From Patescibacteria group bacterium (lineage in GTDB: Bacteria > Patescibacteriota > Patescibacteriia > XYB2-FULL-38-15), in the NCBI GenBank assembly GCA_041650995.1, contig JBAZJZ010000002.1, positions 13,344 through 77,343 on the forward strand: a DNA stretch of 64,000 nucleotides, in the 5' to 3' direction. Below are positions 3,463-43,327 of this stretch, piece by piece (the stretch's first letter is position 1; each line of letters starts with the position of its first letter). A model generated the notes under the pieces. The model was given only the letters and a program-made list of their open reading frames with translations. It had not been told where the DNA came from and made no database searches. Made by a program: the position numbers and the translations under genes.

Positions 3463-3487
3463 GAGCCAAAAGAAAGGAGGGCGAGCC

Positions 3488-28100: not shown

Positions 28101-31100
28101 CAAACGACGGCGACACTACGCCATTTGTTATTCAGGCGGACGGAGATGTTGGCATTGGTACGGCGGCTCCGGTTAGTTTGTTACATTTAGTAAAAGATTC
28201 AACTTATAACAGTGAAAATACGGGAGCTATTAAAATAACAGACTCAACTTTGACTGACACAGGTCTTATTATAGGAACGGATGCGACTAATGATATTGGT
28301 TACATTCAATCCCTAGACCCCGGAACGAGTTATACAACTCGGCCATTGATATTAAATCCAAACGGGGGTTATGTCGGCATCAGTGATATTTCTCCCGCTG
28401 CGCTTTTTACTGTTGGTAGTGGCGACCTTTTTCAGGTTAATTCTTCCGGCGCTATCGCCGCGGCAACGGGCATTATTTCCAGCGGCACAATTCAGTTTAC
28501 TGGCCTCACGGCTTCTTCCGCCGTCTACACTGACGCTTCAAAAAATTTAACTTCCACCGCTCCGACTTCCGGCGCGATCGGATATTGGTCTCGGAGCGGA
28601 ACAACTTTATCTCCGGCAACGGCCAACGATGTTGTTTCAGTTTCGGGTACCGGCGCGATCGCGATTACCGGGACAAGTTCGGCAGCTGGTGGATATGGTA
28701 TTTACGGCACTGCCACAGACGCAACAGCAGTAGCAAATTACGGCGGATATTTTATAGCCGCAGGAACGGGGAGCGGCACAGCAGGTGTTTACGGCGAATC
28801 TACAGCGACAGGCGGTTTTAGTCCATTTTATGGTGGTTATTTTACCGCGGCTGGTAATCTTGGAGTCGGTGTCCAGGGCGTGGCTACGGCCACAGCCTTT
28901 GCTACAAATTATGGCGTTTACGGTCAGGCTGATGGAGATACGGGCGTTGGTGTTAGGGGTTTAGCCAGCGGGACTGAGGGGATAAATTACGGCGGTTATT
29001 TTTGGTCAAATGGTCCGGGCGGCTATGGAGTTTATGGCCGGGCTAACTCTGGTACGGGTACAACTTATGGTGTTTATGGCGAAGTCATTTCTTCAAGCGG
29101 TTGGGCGGGATATTTTGACGGCGGGCTTGGTTTGTACGCTTCCGCGGCGAGAATAGATTCTCTCTCTGCCTCCTCCGCCGTCTACACTGACGCTTCAAAA
29201 AATTTAACTTCCACCGCTCCGACTTCCGGCGCGATCGGATATTGGTCTCGGAGCGGAACAACTTTATCTCCGGCAACGGCCAACGATGTTGTTTCAGTTT
29301 CGGGTACCGGCGCGATCGCGATTACCGGGACAAGTTCGGCAGCTGGTGGATATGGTATTTACGGCACTGCCACAGACGCAACAGCAGTAGCAAATTACGG
29401 CGGATATTTTACCGCGGCTGGGACAGGCACTTTGACTGCCGGAGTGTATGGTGAAGTTACTGCCACAGCGGACAATATTGCCGGAGTTTACGGGAAAGCC
29501 ACCAACACTGGCGCTTACATAAATTACGGCGGCGCGTTTTTTGCCAATGGTGAAAATGGTCGTGGTGTTTATGGCGAGGCGGTTTCCAATGCCGCAGCTA
29601 CAAATTATGGAGGGTACTTTGTCGGCGGCGGCACAGCTGCCAACACAGCTGGCGTTTACGGACAGGCGACAAATACTGGCGCGGTAGCGAACTACGGTGG
29701 GTATTTTTTGGCGGAAGGTACGGGTTCTGCCGCGGCTGGCATCTATGGCGAAGCTTCTGGCGCCGGCTCGGTTTATGGTGTTCAAGGAGCTGCAACTGAT
29801 ACTGGTGCAGTAGCAAACTATGGCGGATATTTTACCGCAGCAGGAACAGTAACTGGAGCAACCGGGGTTTATGGCGAAGCAAGTGGCGCAACAAATTTAG
29901 CATTGGGTGTTCATGGAGTTGCTTCAGCCACTGGCGCAGTCACAAACTACGGCGGTGTGTTTACCGGTGCCGGCAATACGGGACGCGGCGTTTATGGCGA
30001 AGCCACGGCCACCGGCGCTTACACAAACTACGGCGTTTATGGCATGGCTGTTGGCGATACTGGCAGGGCTGTTTATGGAACGGCCCAGGCCACTACTAGC
30101 GCAGTGAATTATGGAGGTTATTTTGTGACGCACGGAGATGGCACTTTTGCAGCTGGTGCTTATGGCGAAGCTTCTGGCGCCGGCTCGGTTTTCGGCGTTA
30201 TTGGTTATGCTTCAAACAGCGGCGCGGTCACAAATACTGGCGGAGCATTTACGGCCAACGGTGAAACTGGCCGGGGCGTTTATGGCCAGGCTTCAAATTC
30301 TGCTGCCACTGTAAACTATGGTGGTTATTTTATAGCAGATGGTGCAGGCGCAGGAACAGCTGGTGTTCGTGGCATTGCAAACGGAGGGGCCGCAGTGTAT
30401 GGCGTCTATGGTTCTACTATAAGTGCGAATACTGGTGCAAGCGGTGTCTATGGCGAGGCTTCTGGCGCGGCCAGCGAGGTTATTGGCGTTCAGGGCGCAG
30501 CATCCAGTTCTGGCGCAGTAGCAAATTACGGCGGATATTTTGCTGCATTTGGGTCGGGTACTGGTGCAAGTGGTGTTTATGGCTTAGCCACGGCTGTTGG
30601 TATAGTCTATGGCGTTCAGGGGCGAGCGTCGGCTGTTGATAATGCTACAAGTTATGGTGGATATTTTACAACAGAAGGATATACCGGTCGCGGTGTTTAC
30701 GGTTACGCTGAGTACATCGGCGCCACAGTAAACTACGGCGGTTATTTTGAAGCAAATGGTGCAGGCGCGGGCACAGCCGGCGTGCGCGGTATTGCAAATG
30801 CTAATGCCGCTGTTTACGGCGTCTATGGTTCAACCTCTGGCCAAGCTTCTGGCGCAGTTGGTGTCTATGGCTTGGCTTCTGCTGCAGCAGATGTTATTGG
30901 CGTCCAAGGCGCAGCAACAAGTGCCGGCGCTTATGAAAACTACGGCGGATATTTTTATGCTGCGGGTAATTCGGGTAGGGGTGTTTATGGAACGGCAGTA
31001 GCCTCAGGCGCGGTTACAAACTACGGTGGATATTTTCAGGCAAGTGGTAATTCCGGCAGCGCTGTCTATGGATTAGCATCTGCCACTGGCGCAGTCACAA

Positions 31101-34100
31101 ACTACGGCGGGAATTTTCGGGCTGATGGAGATTTAGGTATTGCTGTTTCTGGTTGGGCTTCTGCAAGTAGCGCAACAGCGAATTATGGTGGGAAATTTTT
31201 AGCAGGGGGTACGGGAGGAGCATATGGGGTATATGGCGAAGCAACTGGCCTTTCGGGTACAAATTATGGTGTTTATGGGAAAGGTTCAGTAGGTGTTTAT
31301 GGTTATGTTAGCGCAACGCAGTATGGTTATTTAGGGGATTCCACCTACGGCGTTTATGGCCGCGGTACAATTGGTGTTTATGGAACAGACGGGACTAGAT
31401 ATGGACAATTGGGGTATGCTTCGGCAGGTGTTTATGGAACAGACGGGACTAGATATGGACAATTGGGTACGGGAAGTTATGGTGTTTATGGTTATTATGA
31501 CGCCACGCATTCAGGCTATATTGGTGGCGCGAGTTATGGAATTTACGGAACCGGTGCTGATGGCGAGGGGGTGCACGGCGAAGCAACGACTGGTTATGGC
31601 GTTCGCGGTAATGCAACAACCGGTTATGGTACGTCAGGATTTTTGTCTGGTGAAACGGGACGAGCAGTTTGGGGTTCTGCTTACAACGCGAGCGGTACAA
31701 CAACTTATGGTGGATATTTTAGTTCGTCCGGCACTTCTGGTTATGGTGTTTATGCGGAAGCAACTGCGAAAAGCACTGTTTATGGTGTTTACGGGGTTGC
31801 TTCAGATGCAGGAGCGGGCACAAGTTACGGAGGGTATTTCACATCTGCTGGCACGACAGGCCGCGCAGTTTACGGCTCAGCCTCAACTACTGGAGCAACA
31901 ACAGCTTATGGCGGTTATTTTACATCTGCTAGTGATTACGGTCGTGGTGTTTATGGTGAGGCTACTGATACTGCCGCAGTTCAAAATTATGGCGGTTATT
32001 TCTCCGCCGCGGGCGGGGCGGGCATTGGCGTTTATGGTGTAGCTTCTGCCGCAAGTACTGTTTATGGCGGCTATTTTGAAGCTACGAATACAGGAGCTGT
32101 GACAAATTACGGCGTTTATGGGAAAGCCGCCGGAGACACCGGTTATGGAGTTAGGGGTGAGGCTTCTGACACGGGCGCGGTAGCAAATTATGGCGGATAT
32201 TTTTCCGCAGCTGGAACAGGTGGCGGAGTGGGTATTTACGGGTCCGCGACGGGCGCTTCTGGTACAAACTATGGAGTCTACGGCGCGGTGACTTCAGCCG
32301 CTGGCTGGGCAGGGTATTTTACCGGGGGCTATGGTTTGTATGTCAGCGGTTCAGCTAGTCAAATGACCGGTGCCGCTTCTGGCCCGACTTTAACGGTTGC
32401 TGCAACCTCCGTCTCCGCAAATAATATTGCTTTAAAAGTTACTTGGGCTGACAGTTATCTCACAACCACCGACGGCGGCCCTTTAAAAATCGTTTCCACA
32501 ACTGACACCGGTTTTACCACTACGGGTGATGCCGCGACCAGACGCGTTGGTTTAATCCAGGTTGACGCGAATGTTACTTCAGCCTCAAGCGGAAATTTTA
32601 TTGCCTTTAACTCTGATGTTAATGGCACTCCGGACGCAGAATTCAGGGTGTCAATGGCTGGTGCGACTTATGCTGATGGCGCTTATTCATCGGCTGGCGC
32701 TGACTTAGCCGAAGTTTTTGATGTGAGTGATTTATCTTTATCTTTGGGAGATTTGGTGGTGGTTGACAATGTTACTGGTAAACTTAAAAAATCATCCGCT
32801 GCTTATGAAGAAGGATTAGTTGGGATCGTGACTGATGCGACAATGGCAGCTTTTATCGGCGGAGATTCAGATGGTGACCTCGGCCCGGATCAAAGAGTTA
32901 TTACTTTAATTGGTAGAATGTCTTTGACAAAAGTTAATGATGAAAATGGCACAATTAATCCGGGAGATTTGTTAACGTCTTCATCAATGCCTGGCGTAGC
33001 AATGAAAGCCACAAAACCCGGTTCGGTGATTGGTCGGGCATTAGCGTCATGGAGCGGCCCGGGGCAAGGAACGATTGAAGTTTATGTTAATCAAAAATGG
33101 CATTCAGGCGGAACGATTACTACTGATGGCACGATTTCTTTTTTCAATGATGATTTTACTTTCAATAAAACAGAAACAGCGACAGAAATTATTCAGGGTT
33201 ATAACTCCAAAGGTTTAACTTTTCGCGGTTCTGGTTGGGATGGCGCTACGGCGCAAAATGTGGAAATGAAAATTAATAATGTTGTCGCGAGCGCGTCAAA
33301 TTACAAATTAGCAGTTTTAAATAATGCAGGGCAGGAAGTTGCTTATCTTGATCAGGCCGGCGCGTTTGGTCTTTCCGGGAAATTTTATCCGGCCTCGCCA
33401 ACAGGCGCGCAAACCGATGCTTACATTTTCTATCGTAACAATCGCATAAGAACGAACGCCGCTGGATGGGCGACAGGCTCGTTTGATTTTGCCGAAATGT
33501 TCTTATCGCACGAATTGCTTGAGGCTGGAGACGTGGTTGTGTTAGACGAGGCGACAAATGAGTATGTAAAAAAATCAACCACTACTTATAATAATATGGC
33601 GCTCGGCATTGTTTCTACTGAGCCGGGATTTTTAGCCGGAGCCAATGTTGATTTTGACGACCCTTCGGCCGATCAAGGTTATCCGATCGCCCTGGCTGGC
33701 CGCGTGCCGACAAAAGTTTCTGCGGAAAACGGTCCGATTCGGCCTGGCGACTTTTTAACAACTTCCGCGACGCCTGGCGTGGCCATGAAAGCGACTGAGT
33801 CGGGTTTGATTATTGGAACAGCGCTTGAAAGTTTTGATGGCCCTGGTGTTGGTTTAGTGAAAGTTTTCGTTAATCTCTCTTGGTATAACGTTATGGGGGA
33901 GACGACGCCAGTCGGAGAATTGGCACAGCTCACACTTACTGGTGATTTAAATATGAATGGCAATTATATTTTAAATGTCGGGAAGATTGTTGGGTTGGAT
34001 GAAAAATGGAGCATTGATGAAAATGGTATCTTGAAAGTAAAATTAATTGCTGAGGACGCGGGCGAGAAAGAGATGTTTGGAGTAACTTCAGATAAAGTAG

Positions 34101-34570
34101 AATTAACTTTGTCCGGATCTTCGCGGTTGGAGAACGGAACAAAGATGATTGATCTAAGTTTACTTGACCCAGAGTTTATCAAACATATTTCCGCGGAGAC
34201 TGCTCTAAAAATAATTGTGACATTAACCGAACCGGCTAACGGCGTCTATGTCGCGGAAAAAACTGCTTATAGTTTCCGAGTAGCGGAATTGAATGCCGGA
34301 ACTTCTGACGCGGCCTTTGATTGGATTGTGATTGCGAGACGAAAGGGCTACGAAGATCCGCCAACAACACCCGCGCCAAGCGAACCAGCGCCGTCTGCTC
34401 CAAGCGAACCCCCACCAAGCGAACCAGCGCCAGAAACTCCTCCTTCTGAACCAGCTCCGTCAGAGCCTGTGCCAACTGAGCCAACTCCAGAAGTTCCTCC
34501 AGTAGAATCTGCCCCAAGTGAACCGGCACCGTCTGAACCGGCGCCAAGTGAGCCAGCGCCAGCGCCGTAG
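25115..34570 (+). CDS. Giant (3151 aa) membrane-anchored YG-repeat fibre protein with 4 repeated modules and two C-terminal chaperone-like modules; Pro/Glu/Ser-rich tail
   Basis: N-terminal signal-anchor. About 60 degenerate G(V/I)YG...NYGGYF repeats. Module-start motif SASSAVYTDASKNLTSTAPTSG at 26100, 27180, 28500, 29160. C-terminal PxEP-repeat tail. Confidence 0.8.
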   Translation: MFSSGEEKPNIRIPSQGGTNLTLLVFVLGILSLTSIGIMTLSVVKQLRPTAFTAINKQLNYQGKLQNSGGITVADGNYLMKFSIYDAASGGSRLWTECGTTGTPTARTVAVANGVFSVMLGDTNSDSCPGGTDSNAINLDFNSDSYYLGLTVESDAEMEPRKRVGASGYAFNADLLDGLNTSAAGGSFAFVPVTDGSGHLTLTQNLTLGGVMKASDGAVGAPSYTFTSDLDTGLYYSATQINVGVGGAAVANVSASGLAVDTVKTLTATTLTLKGTVADGGTAVGATIGSNNTLSTAGAKLVSFVNNTTEKAYIDKDGVGYFSGGNFSGLSASSAVYTDASKNLTSTAPTSGSIGYWSRTSTTLSPATANDVVAVTGNSGDLLTLTSTATGADNKALNIAASGATTGTDYGAYISNTGAGTTNVGLYVTASGAVTNNYAAIFAAGNVGVGITSPAYTLDVSSSGTRAVNAITSNNSGYAIYGTASATGAVTNYGVYGATAGDSGRGVYGTASATGAVTNYGGYFSSAGNSGRGVYGTASATGAVTNYGGLFYAAGNTGYGVYGHATATGAVGNTGGYFRADGGSGVGVTGTAPTTGAVTNYGGYFSSAGNSGRGISAVATATGAVTNIGGAFSSAGDTGIGVQGSATGSGGVNYGVYGTTSSATGWGGYFSGGLGLYASAARINSLTASSAVYTDASKNLTSTAPTSGALGYWSRTGTVLSPTTSGDTATVAGLNVNFGPITNAYVAINPWYQNSIGSANGIGLPMNRLLGSNTGRHTVTTTGFSGGTSVLYDSFYDSAAIIPYGGTGTVEVDFNPQMGWTDNTASPSFTYENGMLVMSFYYTYFPTNITVEMYHYNSVSLVDEWTTIYTTASNNKNPLIVNTSPTITYIKKIKFTFSGGGDPGLGIRIAELEWFPTRESSANQLAVIPKYYNQNMDVSWTNLNMKKTTDWSTTATISNAGAAYFVGPVGINDTSADASLEVVNDGSGDSFLVADTNDGDTTPFVIQADGDVGIGTAAPVSLLHLVKDSTYNSENTGAIKITDSTLTDTGLIIGTDATNDIGYIQSLDPGTSYTTRPLILNPNGGYVGISDISPAALFTVGSGDLFQVNSSGAIAAATGIISSGTIQFTGLTASSAVYTDASKNLTSTAPTSGAIGYWSRSGTTLSPATANDVVSVSGTGAIAITGTSSAAGGYGIYGTATDATAVANYGGYFIAAGTGSGTAGVYGESTATGGFSPFYGGYFTAAGNLGVGVQGVATATAFATNYGVYGQADGDTGVGVRGLASGTEGINYGGYFWSNGPGGYGVYGRANSGTGTTYGVYGEVISSSGWAGYFDGGLGLYASAARIDSLSASSAVYTDASKNLTSTAPTSGAIGYWSRSGTTLSPATANDVVSVSGTGAIAITGTSSAAGGYGIYGTATDATAVANYGGYFTAAGTGTLTAGVYGEVTATADNIAGVYGKATNTGAYINYGGAFFANGENGRGVYGEAVSNAAATNYGGYFVGGGTAANTAGVYGQATNTGAVANYGGYFLAEGTGSAAAGIYGEASGAGSVYGVQGAATDTGAVANYGGYFTAAGTVTGATGVYGEASGATNLALGVHGVASATGAVTNYGGVFTGAGNTGRGVYGEATATGAYTNYGVYGMAVGDTGRAVYGTAQATTSAVNYGGYFVTHGDGTFAAGAYGEASGAGSVFGVIGYASNSGAVTNTGGAFTANGETGRGVYGQASNSAATVNYGGYFIADGAGAGTAGVRGIANGGAAVYGVYGSTISANTGASGVYGEASGAASEVIGVQGAASSSGAVANYGGYFAAFGSGTGASGVYGLATAVGIVYGVQGRASAVDNATSYGGYFTTEGYTGRGVYGYAEYIGATVNYGGYFEANGAGAGTAGVRGIANANAAVYGVYGSTSGQASGAVGVYGLASAAADVIGVQGAATSAGAYENYGGYFYAAGNSGRGVYGTAVASGAVTNYGGYFQASGNSGSAVYGLASATGAVTNYGGNFRADGDLGIAVSGWASASSATANYGGKFLAGGTGGAYGVYGEATGLSGTNYGVYGKGSVGVYGYVSATQYGYLGDSTYGVYGRGTIGVYGTDGTRYGQLGYASAGVYGTDGTRYGQLGTGSYGVYGYYDATHSGYIGGASYGIYGTGADGEGVHGEATTGYGVRGNATTGYGTSGFLSGETGRAVWGSAYNASGTTTYGGYFSSSGTSGYGVYAEATAKSTVYGVYGVASDAGAGTSYGGYFTSAGTTGRAVYGSASTTGATTAYGGYFTSASDYGRGVYGEATDTAAVQNYGGYFSAAGGAGIGVYGVASAASTVYGGYFEATNTGAVTNYGVYGKAAGDTGYGVRGEASDTGAVANYGGYFSAAGTGGGVGIYGSATGASGTNYGVYGAVTSAAGWAGYFTGGYGLYVSGSASQMTGAASGPTLTVAATSVSANNIALKVTWADSYLTTTDGGPLKIVSTTDTGFTTTGDAATRRVGLIQVDANVTSASSGNFIAFNSDVNGTPDAEFRVSMAGATYADGAYSSAGADLAEVFDVSDLSLSLGDLVVVDNVTGKLKKSSAAYEEGLVGIVTDATMAAFIGGDSDGDLGPDQRVITLIGRMSLTKVNDENGTINPGDLLTSSSMPGVAMKATKPGSVIGRALASWSGPGQGTIEVYVNQKWHSGGTITTDGTISFFNDDFTFNKTETATEIIQGYNSKGLTFRGSGWDGATAQNVEMKINNVVASASNYKLAVLNNAGQEVAYLDQAGAFGLSGKFYPASPTGAQTDAYIFYRNNRIRTNAAGWATGSFDFAEMFLSHELLEAGDVVVLDEATNEYVKKSTTTYNNMALGIVSTEPGFLAGANVDFDDPSADQGYPIALAGRVPTKVSAENGPIRPGDFLTTSATPGVAMKATESGLIIGTALESFDGPGVGLVKVFVNLSWYNVMGETTPVGELAQLTLTGDLNMNGNYILNVGKIVGLDEKWSIDENGILKVKLIAEDAGEKEMFGVTSDKVELTLSGSSRLENGTKMIDLSLLDPEFIKHISAETALKIIVTLTEPANGVYVAEKTAYSFRVAELNAGTSDAAFDWIVIARRKGYEDPPTTPAPSEPAPSAPSEPPPSEPAPETPPSEPAPSEPVPTEPTPEVPPVESAPSEPAPSEPAPSEPAPAP
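28497..28760 (+). repeat. About 260-bp near-perfect intragenic direct repeat, copy 1 (copy 2 at 29157-29420)
   Basis: Identical spurious ORFs 28585..28821 and 29242..29454 in ORF track; identical nucleotide strings beginning ctcacggcttcttccgccgtctacactgacgcttc. Confidence 0.85.
29157..29420 (+). repeat. About 260-bp near-perfect intragenic direct repeat, copy 2
   Basis: See copy 1. Confidence 0.85.
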
Positions 34571-34794
34571 TGGTTATTAAAAATTGTAAACGAGTTGTGC
34601 CTTCGGGTACGGGCCATAACTCGTATATAATAGCAGCTCCCCACCGCAAGGTGAGGAGTTGTTGTATTTATTGATTTTTTATAAATCAACTGATTAAAAT
34701 TATTTAATTTTTGTGGTATAATTAAAAAGGAAGAGGTTGGGGAAAGAAGCAGATCCCTAACTTTGAATATCTATCTCCTAATATTTATAATTGT

Positions 34795-37266
34795 ATGTTT
34801 GATTCAATTCAAAACAGTCACCCTCATAAACAAAATGGCAGGAATAAAAATTCTTTGCGCCCGTTAGTTTTAATCTTGGGATTTTTTGCTATTGCGAGCC
34901 TTGGCGTTATTGGTTTTGCTTTGTTGCAAAAATGGAGTCCTCCAGTTTCTGCCGCGCCGGGAATTTATAAAGTTTTAAATTACCAAGGAAAGCTGGAGGA
35001 CTCTGGCGGCATTACCGTGGCTGATGGAGCGTATAATATAAAATTTACGATTTATAATGCCCCCGCGGGCAATGTTGTCCTTTGGACCGCGCGTGAATCA
35101 GACGCTTGCGGCGCTCCTTTTAATCCTTCGGCAAAATCAGTCACAACTTCGCTTGGTATTTTTTCCACTCAACTTGGCGAGTCGGGTGATTGTCCAATAA
35201 ATTTAGATTTTAATGATGATTCATATTATCTTGGCATAACTGTTGGCGCGGATTCGGAAATGACGCCGAGAAAAAGAATCGGGGCAGCTGGGTATGCTTT
35301 TAACGCGGATTTAATGGATGGTCTGGATTCTTCTGAAATTGGAGGCGCAACTGCTTTTGTTCCGGTAACAGATTCAAGCGGGAATTTTGTTTTAACTGGC
35401 AATGTTACTTTTGATACAAATACTTTTTTTCTTGATTCCACAAATGACAATATTGGAATTGGTACGGCCGCCCCGGATACTGATCGGACCGTAGATTTAA
35501 CGACTGCTAAAAAATACGGAGTTTATTCCGTGACAAGTTCGGCGGCAAAGAACACTGTAGCAGTTTATGGTCAGTCAACTGATGCAACTAACAATACTAG
35601 ATACGGTGGATATTTTACTGCGGCAGGTGGCGGAGGTCGAGGCGTTTTTGGTGAGGCTTCAGAGTCAGGAAATCCAATGATTGCAAATTATGGCGGTTAT
35701 TTTACCTCGGCGGGAGATTGGGGGTTGGGCGTTTATGGAGAAGCTTCTGCGAGCGGTTTGGGGACAAGTAATACGGGGGGATCTTTTACTGCGGCGGGAG
35801 ACACTGGTTACGGAGTTAGAGGTGTAGCTTCCGGGACAGCCGGGGTAAATTATGGTGGCTATTTTATATCATACGGGCCCGGCGGATATGGAGTTTATAG
35901 CTGGGCGAATGATACCAGCGCCGCGGCGAATTACGGAGGGTATTTCCGGGCTAGCGGCCAAGGCGGATATGGAGTTTATGGTATAGCATCAGATACGACT
36001 GCCACGGCTAATTACGGTGGATATTTCACCGCGGCTGGCACAGGTGCTTTATCAAGCGGTGTCTATGGTGAGGCATCTGGTTCTGGAACCGTTATAGGTG
36101 TGAGGGGATATGCCCCAGATCTTACTGCAGGAGTTACAAACTACGGCGGTTATTTTTCCGCCCAAGGCGGCACAGCCCAAGCTGTTTTTGGTGATGCTAC
36201 AAATACCGGAGCCGAAATAAATTACGGTGGTTATTTTACTGCGCGCGGTTCAGGGGCTGGAACATCAGGAGTCTATGCCGAGGCAAGCGGGGCAGCATCT
36301 GTTTACGGCGTCTATGGGCTTGCTTCCGATAGTACTGCGGTTACAAACTATGGTGGATATTTTACCGCGGCTGGCACAGGCGCGGGCACAAGCGGTGTTT
36401 ACGGTTTAGCCTCGGGAGCAGCTAGCGTTTACGGTGTTAGAGGCGAGGCCCCGGCTACTGGCGCGGTACAAAATTTTGGTGGATATTTCACCGCGGCTGG
36501 CGATACAGCCATAGCGGTTTATGGTGCGGCTACGGCCATAGCTGGAGCAAGTAATATGGGAGGATTTTTTAAAGCAGACGGCAACGCAGCTGATTCCTAC
36601 GGCGTTTATGCCCTTGCTAGTGGATCCGGAAACAATTATGGTATTTTTGCCTCAACCCTTTCTGTGACTGGTTGGGCAGGATTTTTTAATGGAGGCCGAG
36701 GAATTTATGCTTATCGTTTTTCAATCAACGACGGAATTACGGCGGTTGATTATAACACAATTGGTCCAGCACTCGCAGGCCATACCGGCGGAGGAGAAAT
36801 TACAGATCAGAACGATCTTTTTATCAATGGTAGCTTGGAAGTTGACGGAGAGGCCTGGCTTGATGGCGGTCATACTGACTTAGCGGAAATGGTTGCTTAC
36901 AGCGGCGAGGGCGAGGCTGGTGATGTTATTGTCATTGATGATCAAAATGATAATTCGGCAAAACTTGCAACCAAACCTTATGATCAAAGTGTTCTTGGGA
37001 TTATCTCTACCAAGCCAAGTTTAATTATCACAGGCGACATTAGAGAGGGAAAACTTTTGGCCGTCGCTGGCCGCGTGCCGACAAAAGTAACAAATATCAA
37101 TGGTATGATTCATCGTGGAGATTTGCTGACAACCTCTTTGATCCCTGGCCACGCCATGAAAGCGACTGCGCCAGGTCCGATTGTTGGTAAAGCTTTGGGT
37201 GAATGCAACGAGGGTCAGTGTGTTATTTGGGTTTTTCTAAATGTGAGTTGGTACGGTGGGATATAA
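34795..37266 (+). CDS. YG-repeat fibre protein paralogue (823 aa) sharing N-terminal anchor domain and C-terminal module with giant ORF
   Basis: N-terminal (L/V)NYQGKL..SGGITVADG.Y..KF.IY and DSYYLG.TV..D.EM.PRKR.GA.GYAFNADL.DGL conserved with 25115 ORF; C-terminal DLAEMV...GRVPTKV...PGHAMKATAPG module. Confidence 0.8.
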   Translation: MFDSIQNSHPHKQNGRNKNSLRPLVLILGFFAIASLGVIGFALLQKWSPPVSAAPGIYKVLNYQGKLEDSGGITVADGAYNIKFTIYNAPAGNVVLWTARESDACGAPFNPSAKSVTTSLGIFSTQLGESGDCPINLDFNDDSYYLGITVGADSEMTPRKRIGAAGYAFNADLMDGLDSSEIGGATAFVPVTDSSGNFVLTGNVTFDTNTFFLDSTNDNIGIGTAAPDTDRTVDLTTAKKYGVYSVTSSAAKNTVAVYGQSTDATNNTRYGGYFTAAGGGGRGVFGEASESGNPMIANYGGYFTSAGDWGLGVYGEASASGLGTSNTGGSFTAAGDTGYGVRGVASGTAGVNYGGYFISYGPGGYGVYSWANDTSAAANYGGYFRASGQGGYGVYGIASDTTATANYGGYFTAAGTGALSSGVYGEASGSGTVIGVRGYAPDLTAGVTNYGGYFSAQGGTAQAVFGDATNTGAEINYGGYFTARGSGAGTSGVYAEASGAASVYGVYGLASDSTAVTNYGGYFTAAGTGAGTSGVYGLASGAASVYGVRGEAPATGAVQNFGGYFTAAGDTAIAVYGAATAIAGASNMGGFFKADGNAADSYGVYALASGSGNNYGIFASTLSVTGWAGFFNGGRGIYAYRFSINDGITAVDYNTIGPALAGHTGGGEITDQNDLFINGSLEVDGEAWLDGGHTDLAEMVAYSGEGEAGDVIVIDDQNDNSAKLATKPYDQSVLGIISTKPSLIITGDIREGKLLAVAGRVPTKVTNINGMIHRGDLLTTSLIPGHAMKATAPGPIVGKALGECNEGQCVIWVFLNVSWYGGI

Positions 37267-37286
37267 AAATTTTAGTGATTTAAATA

Positions 37287-37316
37287 AAATCCCGCCCCAA
37301 GGCGGGGTTTTTATTT
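37287..37316 (+). terminator. Rho-independent terminator after fibre-protein genes
   Basis: aaaatcccgccccaaggcggggtttttatt. Confidence 0.7.
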
Positions 37317-37326
37317 GGCGGCACAG

Positions 37327-37385
37327 TTGACAAAGAGGTAAAATTATGCTATTATAAATTGTAAAATTAGAGGTGGAGATTAGGC
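37327..37385 (+). promoter_or_regulatory. Cassette promoter module copy A (TTGACA-17-TATTAT plus conserved downstream box)
   Basis: ttgacaaagaggtaaaattatgctattataaattgtaaaattagaggtggagattagg; about 90% identical to 38182-38240. Confidence 0.6.
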
Positions 37386-37439
37386 GAGATTTGTTTTAAA
37401 ACAAGCCAATTTCGGGTGATCTTCACTTTTCGAAGAACC

Positions 37440-37458
37440 GTCTCGGCAGCGCCGAGAC
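37440..37458 (+). promoter_or_regulatory. GC hairpin gtctcggcagcgccgagac immediately upstream of RBS
   Basis: 8-bp perfect inverted repeat, 6 nt before aaggag RBS. Confidence 0.45.
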
Positions 37459-37472
37459 AAGGAGTTTGACAA

Positions 37473-38075
37473 ATGAAGACAACGATGATCGCGGTGTTCG
37501 TTTCCCTGTTCGTGGTTGGGTGCTACGGGAGCTACCAGAACTACGGTACGGACGATGTGGCGCTCGAGACCTGCGAAGTGCGAGTGACGACGAACGCGAC
37601 GAACGCTTCCGTCACGGTGGACGGCGTCGCGGTCGGCAGCGTGGCGGAACTCGCGATGGGCGAGCACACCTTCGCCGCTACGGCTCCCGGTTATTTTCCG
37701 GCGAGCGTAGTGGTGGGGGTGGACGAGGCGTGCGCCCCGGTTGCGCTTCAGCTTTTCCCCGACCTGAATGGAGACTACGATCTTGTGCTGCATAACACGC
37801 TCTACGATCGTCTCCTGCTGCACCTCGACCAGGACGAGGAAGGAAATCTCGTCGGCTACGACTGGTACGCCGACGACCCGGGACACAGCTTCCAGGAATT
37901 CACCGGCACTGTTTCGTTCGATGGAGAGGTTTATCTCCTCTCGGACGATTCGGTTCGGCTGAGTCTTTCGGGGCAGTGGACTCCGCCGAGAATTGGCGGC
38001 GTCTCTCGGATCGTCGGCACCTGGACTTCCGCCGCGGGCGGCGACGGAGAGTGGCTCGCCGAGTCGCGACCGTAG
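37473..38075 (+). CDS. High-GC lipoprotein with PEGA-like domain (200 aa)
   Basis: Lipobox LFVVGC; VRVTTNATNASVTVDGVAVGSVAELAMGEHTFAATAPGYFPASVVV resembles PEGA domain; about 66% GC; antisense ORFs rejected. Confidence 0.6.
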   Translation: MKTTMIAVFVSLFVVGCYGSYQNYGTDDVALETCEVRVTTNATNASVTVDGVAVGSVAELAMGEHTFAATAPGYFPASVVVGVDEACAPVALQLFPDLNGDYDLVLHNTLYDRLLLHLDQDEEGNLVGYDWYADDPGHSFQEFTGTVSFDGEVYLLSDDSVRLSLSGQWTPPRIGGVSRIVGTWTSAAGGDGEWLAESRP

Positions 38076-38085
38076 CGTCGACTGC

Positions 38086-38150
38086 GCTCGAACCGGCATC
38101 TGGCAGAAATCGTGAAGAACGATTCTCTGTCAGGTGCCGGTCTTTTTATT
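38086..38150 (+). terminator. Cassette terminator module copy 1 (long hairpin accggcatctggcaga...tctgccagatgccggt plus T run)
   Basis: gctcgaaccggcatctggcagaaatcgtgaagaacgattctctgtcaggtgccggtctttttatt; three near-identical copies (also at about 38996 and 40793). Confidence 0.65.
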
Positions 38151-38181
38151 AAGGGCGAAATTTTTCTTGGTTTAAACGAGA

Positions 38182-38240
38182 TTGACAAAAGGGTAAAAAT
38201 GTGTTATTATAAATTGTAAAATTAAAGGTGGAGATTAGGT
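38182..38240 (+). promoter_or_regulatory. Cassette promoter module copy B
   Basis: ttgacaaaagggtaaaaatgtgttattataaattgtaaaattaaaggtggagattagg. Confidence 0.6.
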
Positions 38241-38296
38241 GAAAAAGCCTTACTGCTAAAACTTTTTCAGGTAATTTTCACTTTTTGTGAATAGCC

Positions 38297-38315
38297 GTCC
38301 CGCAAGACTGCGGGC
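38297..38315 (+). promoter_or_regulatory. GC hairpin motif gtcccgcaagactgcgggc upstream of RBS
   Basis: Member of the tcccgcag...ctgcggga family. Confidence 0.45.
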
Positions 38316-38331
38316 AAGGGAGGGGTTAACA

Positions 38332-38994
38332 ATGAAGGCGACGATCGCAATGTGCGCAATGAGCGTGGCGCTCACGGGCTGCCTTGGCATGGAGCTCGGC
38401 AATCCCGAGCCGTTTGAGTTCAGTCTTTCGACTGACTGGAGCAACCCGGAAGACGAGGTGCTCCGCGAGGCGGCTGAGATTTGGGAAAGGATGACCTGCC
38501 TGGACCTCTTCAATGACCAGGGCTACGAACCGCACGACGGGGGTTGGACTCGACCGAAGTTGAACGATCACAAGGATGTGGTCTATCCGTTTTCCCAGAT
38601 CGATACCACACCCGACATCGAAGACTACCTTGAGATGACAGGCGGGTTTGCCGGTTACTTCTGCGGCGACATCCTGATCATGCGGGGGGCGTATCTGCGC
38701 TCCGTGGACGATCAGATTTGTTTTTACAGCAGAGAGGGCGATCCTTCTCGTTGCTTGTCCGAAGAGGAGGCAAGGGAGGACTTTGTCTTCCAGTTCAATC
38801 TAGAGTTGGTCAAGAGAACCGCCATCCATGAATTCGGGCACGCGCTCGGTCTGGATCACAACGACTCCGCTCCTTCTGTGATGGGTACAGATGCATCTCC
38901 GCCCGAGTTCTATTCGGTAGAACCAACGGCGGCGGACATCGACAACCTCTGTCGACTGTACGACTGTCCGGCGGATTGTCCAACGCGACCATGA
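38332..38994 (+). CDS. High-GC lipoprotein zinc metalloprotease (metzincin/matrixin-like, 220 aa)
   Basis: Lipobox ALTGC; HEFGHALGLDHNDSAPSVM = HExxHxxGxxH plus Met-turn; start at MKAT (38332) after RBS gggagggg; ORF-track start 38287 (GTG) overlaps hairpin. Confidence 0.65.
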   Translation: MKATIAMCAMSVALTGCLGMELGNPEPFEFSLSTDWSNPEDEVLREAAEIWERMTCLDLFNDQGYEPHDGGWTRPKLNDHKDVVYPFSQIDTTPDIEDYLEMTGGFAGYFCGDILIMRGAYLRSVDDQICFYSREGDPSRCLSEEEAREDFVFQFNLELVKRTAIHEFGHALGLDHNDSAPSVMGTDASPPEFYSVEPTAADIDNLCRLYDCPADCPTRP

Positions 38995-38995
38995 G

Positions 38996-39060
38996 CTCGA
39001 ACCGGCATCTGGCAGAAATCGTGAAGAACGATTCTCTGCCAGGTGCCGGTCTTTTTATTT
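38996..39060 (+). terminator. Cassette terminator module copy 2
   Basis: gctcgaaccggcatctggcagaaatcgtgaagaacgattctctgccaggtgccggtctttttatttt. Confidence 0.65.
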
Positions 39061-39100
39061 TGTTTTAATTTAAAATTTACAAAGATCCACTTGACTTTTA

Positions 39101-39130
39101 AGACATAATATATATATATGATAACGGCAG
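39101..39130 (+). promoter_or_regulatory. Promoter of third cassette (TTGACT, AT-rich -10)
   Basis: ttgacttttaagacataatatatatatatg; followed by hairpin tcggctaaaggaaagccga (39137-39155) and RBS ggaggag. Confidence 0.4.
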
Positions 39131-39174
39131 AACTGGTCGGCTAAAGGAAAGCCGAGCCGAGGAGGAGAAAGAAG

Positions 39175-40704
39175 ATGAAGGAGAAAATCGGAAAGTTCAT
39201 GGGATTCTTTTTGACCGTCTTCGTGGCGGCCACGATGTTCGCCTACGCCGCGTGCGGTGATGATGACGAGACGGCCAGGATCTGCGACCCCGGCTCGACG
39301 CAGGATTGCTCCTGCGGCGGCGGACGGACCGGTTACCAGATTTGCGATTACACCGGTCTCGCCTGGGGCACCTGCGAGTGTGACTGCGTCCCCAACTGCA
39401 CCGGCCGCGAATGTGGCTCGGATGGTTGCGGTGGCTCGTGCGGATCGTGTTCGGGTTCCGAGATATGTACTCCTGGCGGGGTCTGCGATACGACTGCGCC
39501 GAACTGTCCGGCAGATCGCGATTGCACCGGCCGTGAGTGCGGACCTGATCCGGTCTGCGGTACTTCCTGCGGCACGTGCTCGGGATCCGAGACGTGCAAT
39601 GCGTCGGGTAGATGCGATTGCACCCCCAACTGCTCCGGCCGTGAATGCGGCTCGGATGGCTGCGGAGGTTCTTGCGGTTCGTGCTCGGGATCCGAGACGT
39701 GCAATGCGTCGGGTACGTGTGTCCCAGGCACGGATCCGTGTTCATCGAGCTCCTCATGTTCGGCGTGTACGCCGCGAGGTGGATGCGGCTGGTGCCAGTC
39801 GACGGGAGTTTGCGTTTCGGGTATTAGTTCCGGACCAACAAGCGGAACCTGCGGTGACTGGCGTTGGACCCCAGGCGACTGTTGCACCCCCAACTGCTCC
39901 GGCCGTGAATGCGGCTCGGATGGCTGCGGAGGTTCTTGCGGTTCGTGCTCGGGATCCGAGACGTGCAATTCTTCAGGAAGGTGTGAATCCACGGTGTCCT
40001 GCGGAAACGGGCGTTGCGATTCGGGCGAAACGTGCGCTACGTGTCCGGCCGACTGCGGCGCTGGCGACGGATGTCTCCCTGGTTCTTCAGGGCCGTGTTC
40101 TAACTCGTGTGGAGCAGGCACGCGTATCTGCGACTCCAGTTGCCGGTGGGGAACTTGCGTTGTTTCTTCTGGCAGCGCCACGGTCCGGGTCACAGACGCA
40201 ACTTGGGTTTACCAGGCGTACCCGACAGTGAACAACTGCCACTCAGCTGTCCTATGGGTCGGCGTGAATCCAACGGACTTCCGGTATTACTACTCGTTCT
40301 TTGCACTCAATACGAGTGATCTTGACGCAATTCCGTCAGGCGCGGTCGCGACCATCACGAGCGCGAATTTACGGTTGCGCGTCCGGGATCGTCTAGGAGC
40401 AGCGCCAACGCTTGGTGTCTATCAAGTTACGTCTTCCTATTCGTGTGCGGCGACCACATACCGCAGCATGCCGTCGTTTTCTCTACCTGCATATGCTACG
40501 TGGCTTGCCAACCAGTCATCTGGGTCGTGGGTTTCGGTGCCTATTGTGGGATTCATTGAGTACGTGCGTTCAGCTGCTGTTGTCAATCCGACCTTGGCGT
40601 TGGGGATAGGCACCGGCGACATCGGGGTCGTCGAGTACATTGCTCCCGGCGGTGGCGGTACAGTTGATGACCCGACGATTACTGTGACATGGACGTGCCC
40701 ATAG
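39175..40704 (+). CDS. High-GC Cys-rich repeat lipoprotein (509 aa): 4x CxxNCxGRECGSDGCGGSCGSCSGSETC repeats, PSI-like CGWC module, C-terminal DNRLRE-like beta domain
   Basis: Lipobox AYAAC; four near-identical 30-aa Cys repeats; CSACTPRGGCGWCQSTGVC; C-terminal VRVTDATWVYQ...SFFALNTSDLDAIPSGAVATITSANLRLRV. Numerous overlapping ORFs on other frames rejected. Confidence 0.65.
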   Translation: MKEKIGKFMGFFLTVFVAATMFAYAACGDDDETARICDPGSTQDCSCGGGRTGYQICDYTGLAWGTCECDCVPNCTGRECGSDGCGGSCGSCSGSEICTPGGVCDTTAPNCPADRDCTGRECGPDPVCGTSCGTCSGSETCNASGRCDCTPNCSGRECGSDGCGGSCGSCSGSETCNASGTCVPGTDPCSSSSSCSACTPRGGCGWCQSTGVCVSGISSGPTSGTCGDWRWTPGDCCTPNCSGRECGSDGCGGSCGSCSGSETCNSSGRCESTVSCGNGRCDSGETCATCPADCGAGDGCLPGSSGPCSNSCGAGTRICDSSCRWGTCVVSSGSATVRVTDATWVYQAYPTVNNCHSAVLWVGVNPTDFRYYYSFFALNTSDLDAIPSGAVATITSANLRLRVRDRLGAAPTLGVYQVTSSYSCAATTYRSMPSFSLPAYATWLANQSSGSWVSVPIVGFIEYVRSAAVVNPTLALGIGTGDIGVVEYIAPGGGGTVDDPTITVTWTCP

Positions 40705-40792
40705 TTGCGGCTCAGTTCGAATAGTGCCTCGCGCGCACAAGAACACCGCAGCGTTAATTTCCGCGCTTGTCCGTGACGCAGACACGCATCGT

Positions 40793-40855
40793 TGAACCGG
40801 CATCTGGCAGAAATCGTGAAGAACGATTCTCTGCCAGATGCCGGTCTTTTTATTT
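40793..40855 (+). terminator. Cassette terminator module copy 3
   Basis: ttgaaccggcatctggcagaaatcgtgaagaacgattctctgccagatgccggtctttttattt. Confidence 0.65.
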
Positions 40856-40975
40856 AATTTTTTTATCTTACTGTGGATGAAATTTTTTTATAATCAGTTT
40901 TTGTGCTATAATTAACTAATTAATTTAAACGCTTATTCTCGAAAGTGAGTCTTTTGGGAAAAGTAAAATCTAACT

Positions 40976-43327
40976 ATGAACACAATTGCTAACATTTGTG
41001 ACAAATTGGTTAAAATTTGTCTGTCCCTTTTGGTTTTTGTTTTACCGGTTTTTTTTCTGCCGTGGACTTTTGAAGCTCTGGATTTTAACAAACAAAATTT
41101 ACTGGTTATTGTGACGCTTTTGGCAGGGCTTGCCTGGCTTGGAAAAATGGTTGCTTCAAGGCAAGTTATTTTGCGCCGCAGTTTTTTGAATGTTCTTGTT
41201 TTATTGTACGTGGCGATTTACACCCTCGCGACGATTTTTTCCTTGGATAAAATCAGGAGTTTTGTCGGAGCTTCGGGATTGGAAAAAGAAGGGCTCGTAA
41301 CGGTTCTTTGTTTTGTTATTTTATATTTTGTCATCATCAACAATTTTCGCGACATGAAGGCAGTAAAGAATTTACTTTACTCGTACCTTTTGGGCGCGGG
41401 GGTTGTGACCGTCTGGACAGCGTTTGTTTTTTTAGGAGTATTACCTGCCACGCTCGTCCCCAGCCAAGCTCTAAATTCAGTTGGAACCTTGAACGGTTTG
41501 GGAATTTTTTTGGGAGCCGCGTTCGTTTTGCTTTGCCCATTATTTTTAGGGGATGGGGCAGAAAAGGGTAAGGCCAGTAAAAAGAATTTAGTTATGAGAA
41601 TTGTGATGGCTGTTGTCGCCGCGCTTATGCTTTTTCTTCTGGCGACGATTGATAATTGGATAGTTTGGGCGATTTTTGTTCCGGCTATTGCTTTTGTTTT
41701 GGCTTTCGCAATAATTAGGGCTCATGAAATTAAAAATTTAGGGTGGTTGGCTCTGCCCATGGCAGCTTTTGTCGTTGCAGTCTTATTATTTTTTATTAAT
41801 ACGCCAATTGTTTCGCGATTGCCGGCGGAAATTATGCCGTCTTTTTCCGCGTCAAGCGGGATTGCCAGGCAATCTTTGCAAGAAGCGCCACTTTTGGGTT
41901 CTGGGCCAAGTACGTTTGTTTTTGATTATGCGAAATATAAGCCAGCCGGCGTAAATGAGACACAACTTTGGGATGTTAAGTTTGATCGCTCTGCTTCAAG
42001 GGTTTTAACCATGCTTACAACTACTGGGCTTTTTGGAATTATTTCGTGGTTATTTGTGGCGGTGTTTTTGGCCGTTTTACTTGTTTCAAATTTAATCAAA
42101 GAAAAATCTGGAGCACTATGGCTGAATCAGTTGGCAGTTGGCGCGGCTTGGCTTGCCTTACTTCTCGGTAAATTTCTTTATTCTTCCAATTTAACTTTGG
42201 AATTTTCCTTTTGGATTTTAACGGCAATTTTGGTAGTTATAACTTCACATAAATTTTGGGAGATTTCTTTGGGCAGCGCCCCGCGCGTTTCCCTGATTTT
42301 GTCTTTTCTTCTGGCAATAGGTTTGATTTTGACTGTTTCGTCTTTTTATCTCGTGGGCGAGCGTTACGCAGCTGATGCGAAATTTATGCAGGCTTTGGAC
42401 TCCTTTAATAAAGGAGAGGATTTGAGCAAGGCAACAGGGCTTTTGGATCAAGCTGTGTCTTTAAACCAACGCAACGACATTTATCTTAGAAATTTGGCGC
42501 AAAGTTTGCAGGCGCAAATTAATCAAGAGCTAGCGGCTACGCCGACCGAAGAGGGCGCTAAAAAAATCCAAGAACTTATCGCGGCGGACATTAATGTGGC
42601 AAAGCGCGCGACAGAAATTTCTCCGAAAAATTCAACTAACTGGGCAACACTGGCGTCAATTTACCAGACAATTATGTCGATAATTCCGGGAGCTGACGAA
42701 TGGGCTGTAAGTTCTTGGCAGAAAGCGATTGAATTTGAGCCGGCAAATCCGTATCTTTATACAGAATTAGGAAAAACCTACGCGGCAATGGCTGATTTGC
42801 TTGCTCCAAATCTTCAGTCAAAAGATGATAAAGTAAAAGCTGAGGCAGAAACAAAAGTTAAAGAAAATTTAGACAAAGCCGAGGAACAACTTAACAAAGC
42901 TATCACGACTAAAGCAGATTATGCGCCAGCTCATTTTGAATTGGCGTTAGTTTATAGCCGACAAGGAAAAGTCAATGAGGCGATTAGTAAATTAGAAGAA
43001 ATTAAGGCCGATTTGCCAAATGATATTGGGGTGGCCTTCCAGCTCGGTTTGCTTTACGCGCAAAATAAAGAATTAGACAAGGCTGTTGCCGAATTGGAAC
43101 GAGTAGTTGGGCTCGCGCCGAGCTTTGCTAACGCCCGTTGGTATCTCGCGGCGATTTACGAAGAGCAAGGTAAAAAAGATTTAGCGCTTGGCGAACTGGA
43201 AGAAATTTTAAAGACCAACCCTGACAATGAAATTGTTAAACAGAAAATTGATTCTTTAAAAAACCCGTCCACTGGAGAGCCAGCGGTTTTACCGACCCCA
43301 ATTCCTGAAACGGTTCCAGCGCAGTAA
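40976..43327 (+). CDS. O-antigen ligase (Wzy_C/WaaL/PglL)-family polytopic membrane protein with C-terminal TPR repeats
   Basis: About 12 TM helices in first 450 aa, then TPR-like repeats (YTELGKTYAAMADLL, HFELALVYSRQGKVNEAI, ARWYLAAIYEEQGKKDLALGELEEILK). Confidence 0.65.
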   Translation: MNTIANICDKLVKICLSLLVFVLPVFFLPWTFEALDFNKQNLLVIVTLLAGLAWLGKMVASRQVILRRSFLNVLVLLYVAIYTLATIFSLDKIRSFVGASGLEKEGLVTVLCFVILYFVIINNFRDMKAVKNLLYSYLLGAGVVTVWTAFVFLGVLPATLVPSQALNSVGTLNGLGIFLGAAFVLLCPLFLGDGAEKGKASKKNLVMRIVMAVVAALMLFLLATIDNWIVWAIFVPAIAFVLAFAIIRAHEIKNLGWLALPMAAFVVAVLLFFINTPIVSRLPAEIMPSFSASSGIARQSLQEAPLLGSGPSTFVFDYAKYKPAGVNETQLWDVKFDRSASRVLTMLTTTGLFGIISWLFVAVFLAVLLVSNLIKEKSGALWLNQLAVGAAWLALLLGKFLYSSNLTLEFSFWILTAILVVITSHKFWEISLGSAPRVSLILSFLLAIGLILTVSSFYLVGERYAADAKFMQALDSFNKGEDLSKATGLLDQAVSLNQRNDIYLRNLAQSLQAQINQELAATPTEEGAKKIQELIAADINVAKRATEISPKNSTNWATLASIYQTIMSIIPGADEWAVSSWQKAIEFEPANPYLYTELGKTYAAMADLLAPNLQSKDDKVKAEAETKVKENLDKAEEQLNKAITTKADYAPAHFELALVYSRQGKVNEAISKLEEIKADLPNDIGVAFQLGLLYAQNKELDKAVAELERVVGLAPSFANARWYLAAIYEEQGKKDLALGELEEILKTNPDNEIVKQKIDSLKNPSTGEPAVLPTPIPETVPAQ

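Follow-up and report, generated by a model that had tools for sequence, protein, structure and literature searches.

The vlp, vsp and vsa loci of Mycoplasma are multigene families of variable surface lipoproteins, and the members of these Mollicutes families are paralogous repeat proteins. Phage morons are autonomous insertions of deviant composition, each with a promoter, an open reading frame (ORF) and a terminator. Here, we describe a locus of three tandem genes on contig JBAZJZ010000002.1 of a Patescibacteria bacterium, in a stretch of 64,000 nt that was analyzed as a whole and is called the window below. By analogy, the locus appears to be closest to the Mollicutes families in the way it works and to phage morons in its construction; its likeness to integron arrays is superficial. 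Each unit, or cassette, consists of an AT-rich 5′ module (putative promoter, structured leader, GC hairpin, Shine-Dalgarno sequence and the first codons of the signal peptide), a GC-rich ORF, and a hairpin followed by a U-run. We consider it probable that the locus is a chromosomal, recombining array of autonomous surface-protein cassettes whose genes came from high-GC bacteria and were domesticated under promoters of native type, and which diversify the surface repertoire.

As in the Mollicutes families, genes for predicted surface lipoproteins are arranged in tandem on the same strand in a small-genome, host-dependent bacterium, and a conserved 5′ region (promoter, leader and signal peptide) is reused on divergent mature proteins. 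This region comprises promoter A, its leader, the ribosome-binding site (RBS) and the codons for MKTTMIA in the PEGA and metzincin genes, so that the 5′ module extends into the coding sequence; in L014, the locus of a relative, it comprises promoter B and a 30-aa signal peptide that is identical in two cassettes. Internal repeats in some members, array differences between strains that would arise by recombination, and a simple repeat between the −35 and −10 elements of one promoter type are further similarities. Unlike in the Mollicutes families, the mature parts are unrelated folds (a binder, a protease and a Cys-rich/DNRLRE protein), the ORFs are compositionally foreign, and the reuse extends to a terminator module with a long hairpin. 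Families of the Mollicutes type vary in phase or size at high frequency through a promoter repeat tract, an invertase or in-frame repeats; the annotation of the window revealed no invertase.

The cassettes share with morons the organization as single-gene units of deviant composition between conserved genes, each with its own predicted sigma-70 promoter and intrinsic terminator. They differ from morons in lying in the core chromosome, in having no viral relatives, and in regulatory modules that are reused between units and conserved across species. Like integron arrays, the locus has unidirectional single-ORF cassettes, a conserved imperfect palindrome after each of them, variable content and palindromes that are homogeneous within a genome. 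Integron cassettes lie next to an IntI tyrosine recombinase with attI and Pc, and are generally promoterless and expressed from Pc, whereas a near-consensus sigma-70 promoter precedes each cassette here. The attC site, with R''/L''-L'/R' boxes, recombines as a folded bottom strand at a precise position, whereas the hairpin of the array is a sense-strand structure and the junctions are imprecise. Neither an integrase nor attI or attC core sites were found at the array; the attC core GTTRRRY is not conserved in the three terminator modules (T1 to T3), as GTTGAAC occurs in T3 only and T1 and T2 have CTCGAAC. Integron-like capture was rejected because no integrase was found among the annotated ORFs of at least 150 aa, the junctions are imprecise and the wobble pairs are those of the sense strand.

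In relatives, a fibre gene and a membrane-protein gene with TPR repeats enclose the corresponding site, which holds one to three cassettes of varying order and content. In the arrays below, promoters A and B are abbreviated PA and PB, the terminator T, and the loci of relatives L0xx. The array is PA-PEGA-T in L007, L015 and L026. L012 has PA-PEGA-T followed by PB-Cys449-T, and contig JBAZEY01 is arranged alike. L014 has PEGA-T, then PB-Cys466/DNRLRE-T, then PB-Cys243-T, and L017 has PA-PEGA-T followed by a PB cassette with a 386-aa Lcl_C-like protein and a terminator. The metzincin gene is present in L019, as the single operon PA-metzincin-PEGA-T, and in L023, as PA-metzincin-T followed by PA-PEGA. 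Across all loci, the G+C content at third codon positions (GC3) of the cassette ORFs was 0.62-0.81, compared to 0.30-0.45 in the flanks. Thus, autonomous promoter-leader-ORF-terminator units built from reused modules, as described in the initial annotation, were recovered, and the cassette reading was strengthened by the variation in number, order and alleles at one site.

The junctions of the cassettes vary. The distance from the stop codon to the hairpin ranges from 7 to ~190 nt, and the non-PEGA cassettes of L014 and L017 contain the 3′ end of PEGA (the last codons and the stop, CCGTAGCATCGGCYGCGCTYGA) ahead of the hairpin. These variable junctions and PEGA remnants point to homologous recombination rather than site-specific capture. 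The third protein of the window is a mosaic, with an N-terminal part like the third cassette of L014 and a C-terminal part like the second. PEGA divergence was unrelated to the divergence of the adjacent TPR gene (r = −0.03). Between L007 and L026, the TPR proteins are 95% identical (synonymous divergence, dS, 0.35) and the PEGA proteins 53% (nonsynonymous divergence, dN, 0.37; dS 1.06); the trough in identity begins after the promoter-leader module and ends at the terminator. In most genome pairs the flanks are saturated (dS 1.0-1.7) and the dS of PEGA is lower (0.45-1.1). This uncoupling of PEGA from the flanks suggests that the cassettes have a history of their own, with allelic replacement and spread between lineages.

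All three cassettes end, as first noticed, in a nearly identical module, a 68-nt repeat with 88-97% identity and a 40-nt invariant core; no copies besides these three were detected in the window (chance expectation, 0). Every copy can be folded as a 22-bp stem that contains a single bulge (−36 to −40 kcal/mol; z-score, −8 to −10) and precedes CTTTTTATT. A GC-rich stem-loop and a U-run are thus present on the sense strand, as in predicted intrinsic terminators, with an unusually long stem. In an alignment of 15 hairpins from nine loci, 96% of the cells were paired, and double changes occurred at two pairs. Two G.U wobbles are present in the most frequent state; on the opposite strand they would be mismatches. 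Since these wobbles pair only in the sense RNA, the function of the hairpin is placed on sense-strand RNA. The hairpin probably acts as an intrinsic terminator and 3′ end protector that would insulate each unit from its neighbours. It had no match at the gathering score in Rfam in the window. Terminator copies showed 3.4 differences within genomes and 6.7 between genomes (permutation P = 0.0003), suggesting gene conversion or recent duplication.

The initial annotation had looked to a genome-wide count of the modules. Genomes were surveyed with an exact 20-mer from the hairpin, a scan that diverged copies would escape, and it occurred only in array copies in both of the related species-representative genomes that contain it. 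Seven other matches, in high-GC genomes or contigs, did not extend beyond the 20-mer and were attributed to chance. A dispersed repeat of the MITE (miniature inverted-repeat transposable element) or REP (repetitive extragenic palindromic) type, or a genome-wide terminator, was ruled out by the confinement of the 20-mer to the array locus and by the presence of three copies in the window.

Cassettes 1 and 2 also share a promoter module, as stated at the outset; it is 61 nt long (37327-37387 and 38182-38242; 89% identity). Promoter A includes an extended −10 TG, and no other sequence in the region matches sigma-70 as well as its two copies. It is followed by leader A, a structured element of ~115 nt that is conserved in ten copies from eight loci, with compensatory changes in 10 of 29 base pairs. 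In the first copy, a long-range stem (GGAGATTA/TGATCTTC) encloses a covarying hairpin, and a GC hairpin (GTCTCGGCAGCGCCGAGAC) lies just ahead of the AAGGAG RBS; in the second copy, the GC hairpin (GTCCCGCAAGACTGCGGGC) precedes the GGGAGGGG RBS. Rfam gave nothing at the gathering score in the window, and only chance-level matches (E up to 10) in 37270-39180. No conserved leader peptide was found in leader A, and start codons were not conserved. Leader A is thus a candidate new structured leader RNA with covariation support, and it may control stability or translation. Its covariance model weakly matched the leaders of two high-GC lipoprotein islets elsewhere in relatives (27 and 22 bits).

Cassette 3 is preceded by a different promoter, promoter B, with a spacer of 20 nt in the window compared to 16 nt in four related copies; an alternative −10, TATATA, is located at 16 nt. 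The (TA)n run in this spacer (39106-39119) is two units longer than in the four related copies, which shifts the hexamer that can act as −10. This length difference may represent promoter-strength or phase variation.

The GC content of the block is 56.3%, with 57-62% in the ORFs, 40-43% in the spacers and ~30% in the promoter modules, and that of the remaining window is 42% (40% at 41-64 kb). The contrast reported in the initial annotation is therefore real, and its size was somewhat overstated (65% against 38%). GC3 was 0.77, 0.69 and 0.63 in cassettes 1, 2 and 3, compared to 0.30-0.43 in the other genes of the window. Codon preference was inverted relative to these genes (AAG 0.88 vs 0.20, TTC 0.70 vs 0.14, CAG 0.93 vs 0.34), and thus the anomaly was confirmed at synonymous sites. 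Amino-acid composition was ruled out as the source of the high GC, as the signal is in GC3. By contrast, the upstream fibre genes are raised only at second codon positions, from their Gly/Ala-rich composition.

We polarised third-position changes with outgroups by parsimony and compared them with a simple F81 stationarity simulation, using overlapping triplets. The GC-to-AT and AT-to-GC changes in PEGA were 23:5, 25:12, 32:7 and 23:2 (P = 0.003, 0.068, 0.001 and <0.001, respectively). The simulations reproduced the known parsimony bias but not the PEGA excess. The ratio in metzincin was 45:22 (P = 0.013), and the flanking gene was balanced. The cassettes thus seem to be still losing GC, which would fit ameliorating imports; this result is suggestive rather than conclusive. 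From the foreign-type codon usage and the loss of GC, we infer import from high-GC bacteria.

Three plus-strand genes were confirmed between the fibre-like gene and the TPR membrane gene (Table 1). The block also has ORFs in other frames, such as 39257-40231 and 37380-38099 on the minus strand, which are shadow frames produced by GC-rich DNA. A public gene call of 323 aa over cassette 3 is also a shadow frame; the 509-aa frame is real because it has homologues and a domain match.

Table 1 Features of the cassette array and its flanks (positions in the window; promoters, leader functions, terminators and lipidation are predicted).
Feature	Position	Strand	Description
Upstream flank, 823-aa Gly-rich fibre-like surface protein	34795..37266	+	GC3 0.35, native composition
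Short intrinsic terminator of the fibre gene	37294..37316	+	GCCCCAAGGCGGGG and T-run
Promoter A, copy 1	37327..37355	+	TTGACA-17-TATTAT with TG, 11/12 consensus
Leader A, copy 1	37356..37472	+	Structured 5′ untranslated region, covariance model 124.8 bits
Cassette 1 ORF, 200-aa predicted lipoprotein, lipobox VVGC	37473..38075	+	GC3 0.77
Terminator module T1	38083..38150	+	Hairpin 38092-38141, then CTTTTTATT
Promoter A, copy 2	38182..38210	+	TTGACA-17-TATTAT with TG
Leader A, copy 2	38211..38331	+	Same architecture as copy 1, 116.5 bits
Cassette 2 ORF, 220-aa predicted lipoprotein, lipobox LTGC, matrixin-like metzincin	38332..38994	+	GC3 0.69
Terminator module T2	38992..39059	+	Hairpin 39001-39050 and T-run
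Promoter B	39091..39122	+	TTGACT, (TA)n-containing spacer, TATGAT
Leader B	39123..39174	+	Short; hairpin GGTCGGCT..AGCCGAGCC directly before GAGGAGGAG RBS
Cassette 3 ORF, 509-aa secreted protein	39175..40704	+	GC3 0.63, homologues and domain match
Terminator module T3	40787..40854	+	Hairpin 40796-40845 and T-run
Downstream flank, 783-aa polytopic membrane protein, C-terminal TPR repeats	40976..43327	+	Native composition

The domain assignments proposed for the three proteins were largely upheld. Protein 1 matched PEGA marginally (Pfam PF08308, 21.5 bits; cut-off, 20.8), and its family profile matched ~690 PEGA-repeat proteins over residues 34-97. Its AlphaFold2 (AF2) model (mean predicted local distance difference test score, pLDDT, 84) is all-beta, with an N-terminal PEGA sandwich and a C-terminal 8-stranded beta-barrel. 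A fold search returned only weak beta-barrel likeness (streptavidin- or calycin-type, E ≥ 1e-3), to which no specific function could be assigned. Protein 2 contains the zinc site HEFGHALGLDH and an SVM Met-turn, which are invariant in eight homologues. Its Matrixin match (PF00413) was above the cut-off (30.5 vs 24 bits), and the profile aligned to the zinc sites of MMP-14 and MMP-16, confirming the HExxHxxGxxH metzincin; the AF2 model was too poor for use (pLDDT 47). In protein 3, the Cys-rich repeats (four copies of CxPNCxGRECGxDGCGGSCGxC) and a C-terminal DNRLRE domain (NCBIfam NF033679, 39.3 bits; cut-off, 34; residues 342-460) were found as proposed, and the PSI domain was not detected.

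Lipoprotein signals had been assigned to all three products. By inspection, the lipoboxes VVGC and LTGC fit the usual [LVI][ASTVI][GAS]C rule, and their Cys is invariant in homologues, which makes proteins 1 and 2 putative lipoproteins. The signal peptide of protein 3 ends in AYAAC, with Y at −3, and is not a canonical lipobox; AYAAC could equally well be an AXA site of signal peptidase I. A 95%-identical duplication of 104 nt (39618-39721 and 39882-39985) is contained in the gene for protein 3. Orthologues of the Cys-rich protein are 509, 466 and 449 aa long and differ in repeat number, suggesting recent intragenic repeat expansion. Arg-Pro is the C-terminus of the PEGA protein (ESRP, 38060-38075) and of the metzincin (PTRP, 38980-38994), with similar codons in both (CGCGACCGTAG and CGCGACCATGA), so that the start of the shared 3′ module may lie within the ORF.

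Donor-type homology differed among the three families. The Cys-rich repeats have thousands of relatives, those with names being from Myxococcota, Bradymonadales or Deltaproteobacteria, and the closest relative examined is on a contig of 69% GC with a GC3 of ~0.9. The best NCBIfam match of the metzincin is a myxobacterial protease family, far under the cut-off. The Cys-rich protein thus points best to a Myxococcota-like donor, and the metzincin points there more weakly. The proposal that the genes were horizontally acquired is supported by composition and GC-to-AT drift, and by donor-type homology only for the Cys-rich protein and, weakly, for the metzincin; otherwise, PEGA and the metzincin are found in Patescibacteria only.

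We propose the following course of events. ORFs would have been imported from high-GC bacteria and then domesticated behind native-type promoters. The repeated 5′ and 3′ modules would serve as portable homology arms for RecA-dependent recombination; recA is present in the window. Recombination between the modules could produce tandem duplication, deletion, gene conversion, mosaic genes and the allelic replacement of whole cassettes between related lineages, and this would explain the one to three cassettes, variously ordered, that relatives hold at this site. Duplication of an ancestral operon of the L019 type (PA-metzincin-PEGA-T) may have been followed by reciprocal deletions at the repeated RBS/MKTTMIA and 3′ segments, which would give both the order in the window and that in L023. 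The array would diversify a surface or secreted repertoire that, with the adjacent giant fibre proteins, may mediate contact with a host or partner.

Several points weigh against this course of events. No high-GC donor was found for PEGA (20 relatives) or the metzincin (8 relatives) in searches of 5.8 billion clustered proteins and an exhaustive profile search; where named, these relatives are Patescibacteria, and every contig examined is low-GC. The import hypothesis is weakest on this point, and selection as the cause of the high GC draws its main support from it. Orthologues with only 45-55% identity are still GC3-rich. Parsimony with a simple F81 simulation on overlapping triplets makes the GC-loss test suggestive. 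The promoters, terminators, leader function and lipidation are predictions from sequence, recombination is read from patterns, and a role at the surface or in host contact is suggested by domain types and gene neighbourhood.

Selection on native genes accounts for some of these points. In this explanation, the genes are lineage-specific and their GC-rich coding is kept by selection, through mRNA structure or stability or codon-dependent translation, in an array that still recombines. The restriction of the PEGA and metzincin families to Patescibacteria contexts would be expected, as would the retention of high GC3 over distances at which flanking dS is saturated, and other high-GC single-gene islets in these genomes have the same leader design. 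However, both families show net GC-to-AT drift at third positions next to a stationary flank, and the relatives of the Cys-rich repeats are in high-GC Myxococcota-type genomes. Cassette dS is mostly below flank dS with an uncoupled history, which argues for later spread rather than ancient residence. We regard selection on native genes as possible but unlikely.

The initial annotation had proposed a dedicated cassette system. This was not supported, as no recombinase was found among the annotated ORFs of at least 150 aa, the junctions are variable, the hairpin is a sense-strand structure, and the 20-mer is confined to the locus in the two related genomes that contain it; homologous recombination between repeated modules explains the anatomy without such a system. 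Two versions with a dedicated activity were considered. In the first, which seems improbable, the 5′ and 3′ modules form a domestication platform: a hairpin-recognising activity encoded elsewhere would insert high-GC ORFs of prey or host between the promoter-leader and the terminator, and the imported secretome as a whole would be co-regulated through leader A, acting as a novel cis-regulatory RNA of the riboswitch or protein-binding type.

In the second, the locus is an integron-like platform for hairpin-guided, site-specific capture, and the hairpin is the recombination site for foreign ORFs. The same long imperfect palindrome closes every cassette, the arrays are unidirectional and variable at one site, and the hairpins are nearly identical within a genome, as attC sites are in chromosomal integrons. 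However, no tyrosine or serine recombinase or transposase was detected in the window by Pfam searches of ORFs of at least 150 aa, a few of which had no Pfam match, and precomputed annotations. The hairpin was confined to the array locus in two related genomes by the 20-mer scan, the spacing to the stop codon and the PEGA remnants are imprecise, the sense-only wobbles and the U-run after the stem are those of terminators, and the cassettes bring their own promoters. Site-specific capture is thus very doubtful.

A remnant of a prophage or mobile element, with moron-like genes beside tail-fibre-like proteins, would explain the promoter-ORF-terminator units of deviant composition, which match the definition of morons, and the giant fibre-like proteins upstream. 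The surroundings are core chromosome, with genes for 16S rRNA, PolA, RecA, FtsK, UvrA, UvrB, UvrC and ribosomal proteins (Pfam and precomputed annotations), and no phage genes were detected there. Searches of 2.9 million viral contigs gave no relative of either protein or of the hairpin, there was no blastn match in phage or plasmid collections, and the locus is syntenic across many genomes, leaving this explanation with very little probability. A phage, plasmid or synthetic-construct origin of the DNA was rejected for lack of matches.

The block was also considered as high-GC DNA joined into a low-GC contig by misassembly or contamination. A second assembly (ENA ERZ27247363, MEGAHIT) matches the window at 100% identity for 19.7 kb and includes both GC transitions. 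The Logan contigs of SRR8542065 also agree with the window without differences, and one spans the left GC boundary. In about nine other contigs, from different samples, these high-GC genes are again enclosed by the same low-GC flanks, with 67-89% identity. Thus, despite the sharp GC switch, the repeats that can mislead assemblers, and the breaks of the remaining Logan contigs at the terminator repeats (as de Bruijn assemblers produce at repeats), there is practically no chance of a chimera, as shown by the independent assembly and the syntenic loci.

The window is a piece of bacterial chromosome that also carries eight tRNA genes. Public records label its proteins 'Patescibacteria group bacterium', and the nearest species-representative genomes are a metagenome-assembled genome (MAG) of Candidatus Falkowbacteria and another Patescibacteria MAG. 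The host is a member of the Patescibacteria, or candidate phyla radiation (CPR), close to Candidatus Falkowbacteria. The 823-aa fibre gene and the 783-aa TPR membrane gene are the conserved left and right borders of the array in relatives, by synteny. The products are, as proposed, predicted to be secreted or surface-exposed next to giant fibre genes. The downstream gene was first described as O-antigen-ligase-like; no such domain was found in it at E ≤ 0.1, and it has TPR repeats and many membrane helices instead.

Other high-GC genes were observed outside the array. A fourth single-gene islet is located in the window at 3340-4395, between trmD and the 16S rRNA gene. Its ORF (3488-4288; 266 aa; GC, 0.66; GC3, 0.84) lacks a signal peptide and matches nothing in Pfam or NCBIfam. 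The islet is equipped with a separate AT-rich promoter, an AGGAGG RBS and a separate terminator that differs from the array module; the GC hairpin of its leader (GTCCCGCAGTACTGCGGGAC) closely resembles that of cassette 2. The arrangement is also present in the independent assembly. In L026 (8250-8930) and L019 (7650-8200), a small high-GC lipoprotein cassette (GC3 0.72) has YchF GTPase and methyltransferase genes as neighbours; in the window, these two genes are directly adjacent, with no cassette between them. The leaders of these YchF-site cassettes are the two distantly related to leader A, and the terminator in L026 has the outer ACCGGC/GCCGGT stem in common. A metzincin homologue (~58% identity; GC3 0.67) is located at an unrelated site in another Patescibacteria genome (L020, 8380-9200), between a gene of the metallo-beta-lactamase fold and a 514-aa gene, where it has a separate promoter, a leader with a short hairpin, and another type of terminator.

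Two observations concern the region upstream of the array. The giant gene for a 3151-aa Gly-rich repeat protein (25115-34570) contains an exact internal repeat of 141 nt (28614-28754 and 29271-29411). The MEGAHIT contig begins exactly at the second copy, so that assemblies may not give a reliable number of repeats for this gene. A non-coding element of 89 nt (34581-34669) is 91-97% identical in L007, L015 and L017 and is recognisably the same in L019 and L026; the genes around it are much less conserved. The element contains two hairpins, nested or adjacent (ACGAGTT..AACTCGT, then GCAGCTCCCCACCGCAAGGTGAGGAGTTGTTG), has no Rfam match, and lies after the giant gene in the window and after the gene for the 823-aa-type fibre protein in relatives. 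This element may be a small RNA or regulatory element.

Gene exchange in groundwater Patescibacteria has been reported to be common, mostly among Patescibacteria, and often not recent (PMC12455944), which fits cassettes shared between lineages. Reuse of promoter, leader or terminator modules, a variable locus at a fixed site, and lipoprotein cassettes that stay GC-rich are features of the present array that the study does not describe. The leader RNA motif with covariation support appears to be new, as does the finding that coding sequence of foreign appearance stays GC-rich across species behind modules of native type.

CPR bacteria are thought to live attached to other cells and are mostly uncultured. 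To our knowledge, the genes that determine contact with their partners are largely unknown. The locus described here is a compact, recognisable hotspot and a handle for tracking the turnover of surface repertoires in metagenomes. It places binders and a protease of foreign composition behind standard regulatory parts, beside giant fibre proteins, in whole cassettes that appear to be swapped between species. The predicted promoter, leader and terminator modules may be natural portable parts for a phylum without genetic tools. The array also poses an evolutionary question: why GC-rich genes last in AT-rich genomes.

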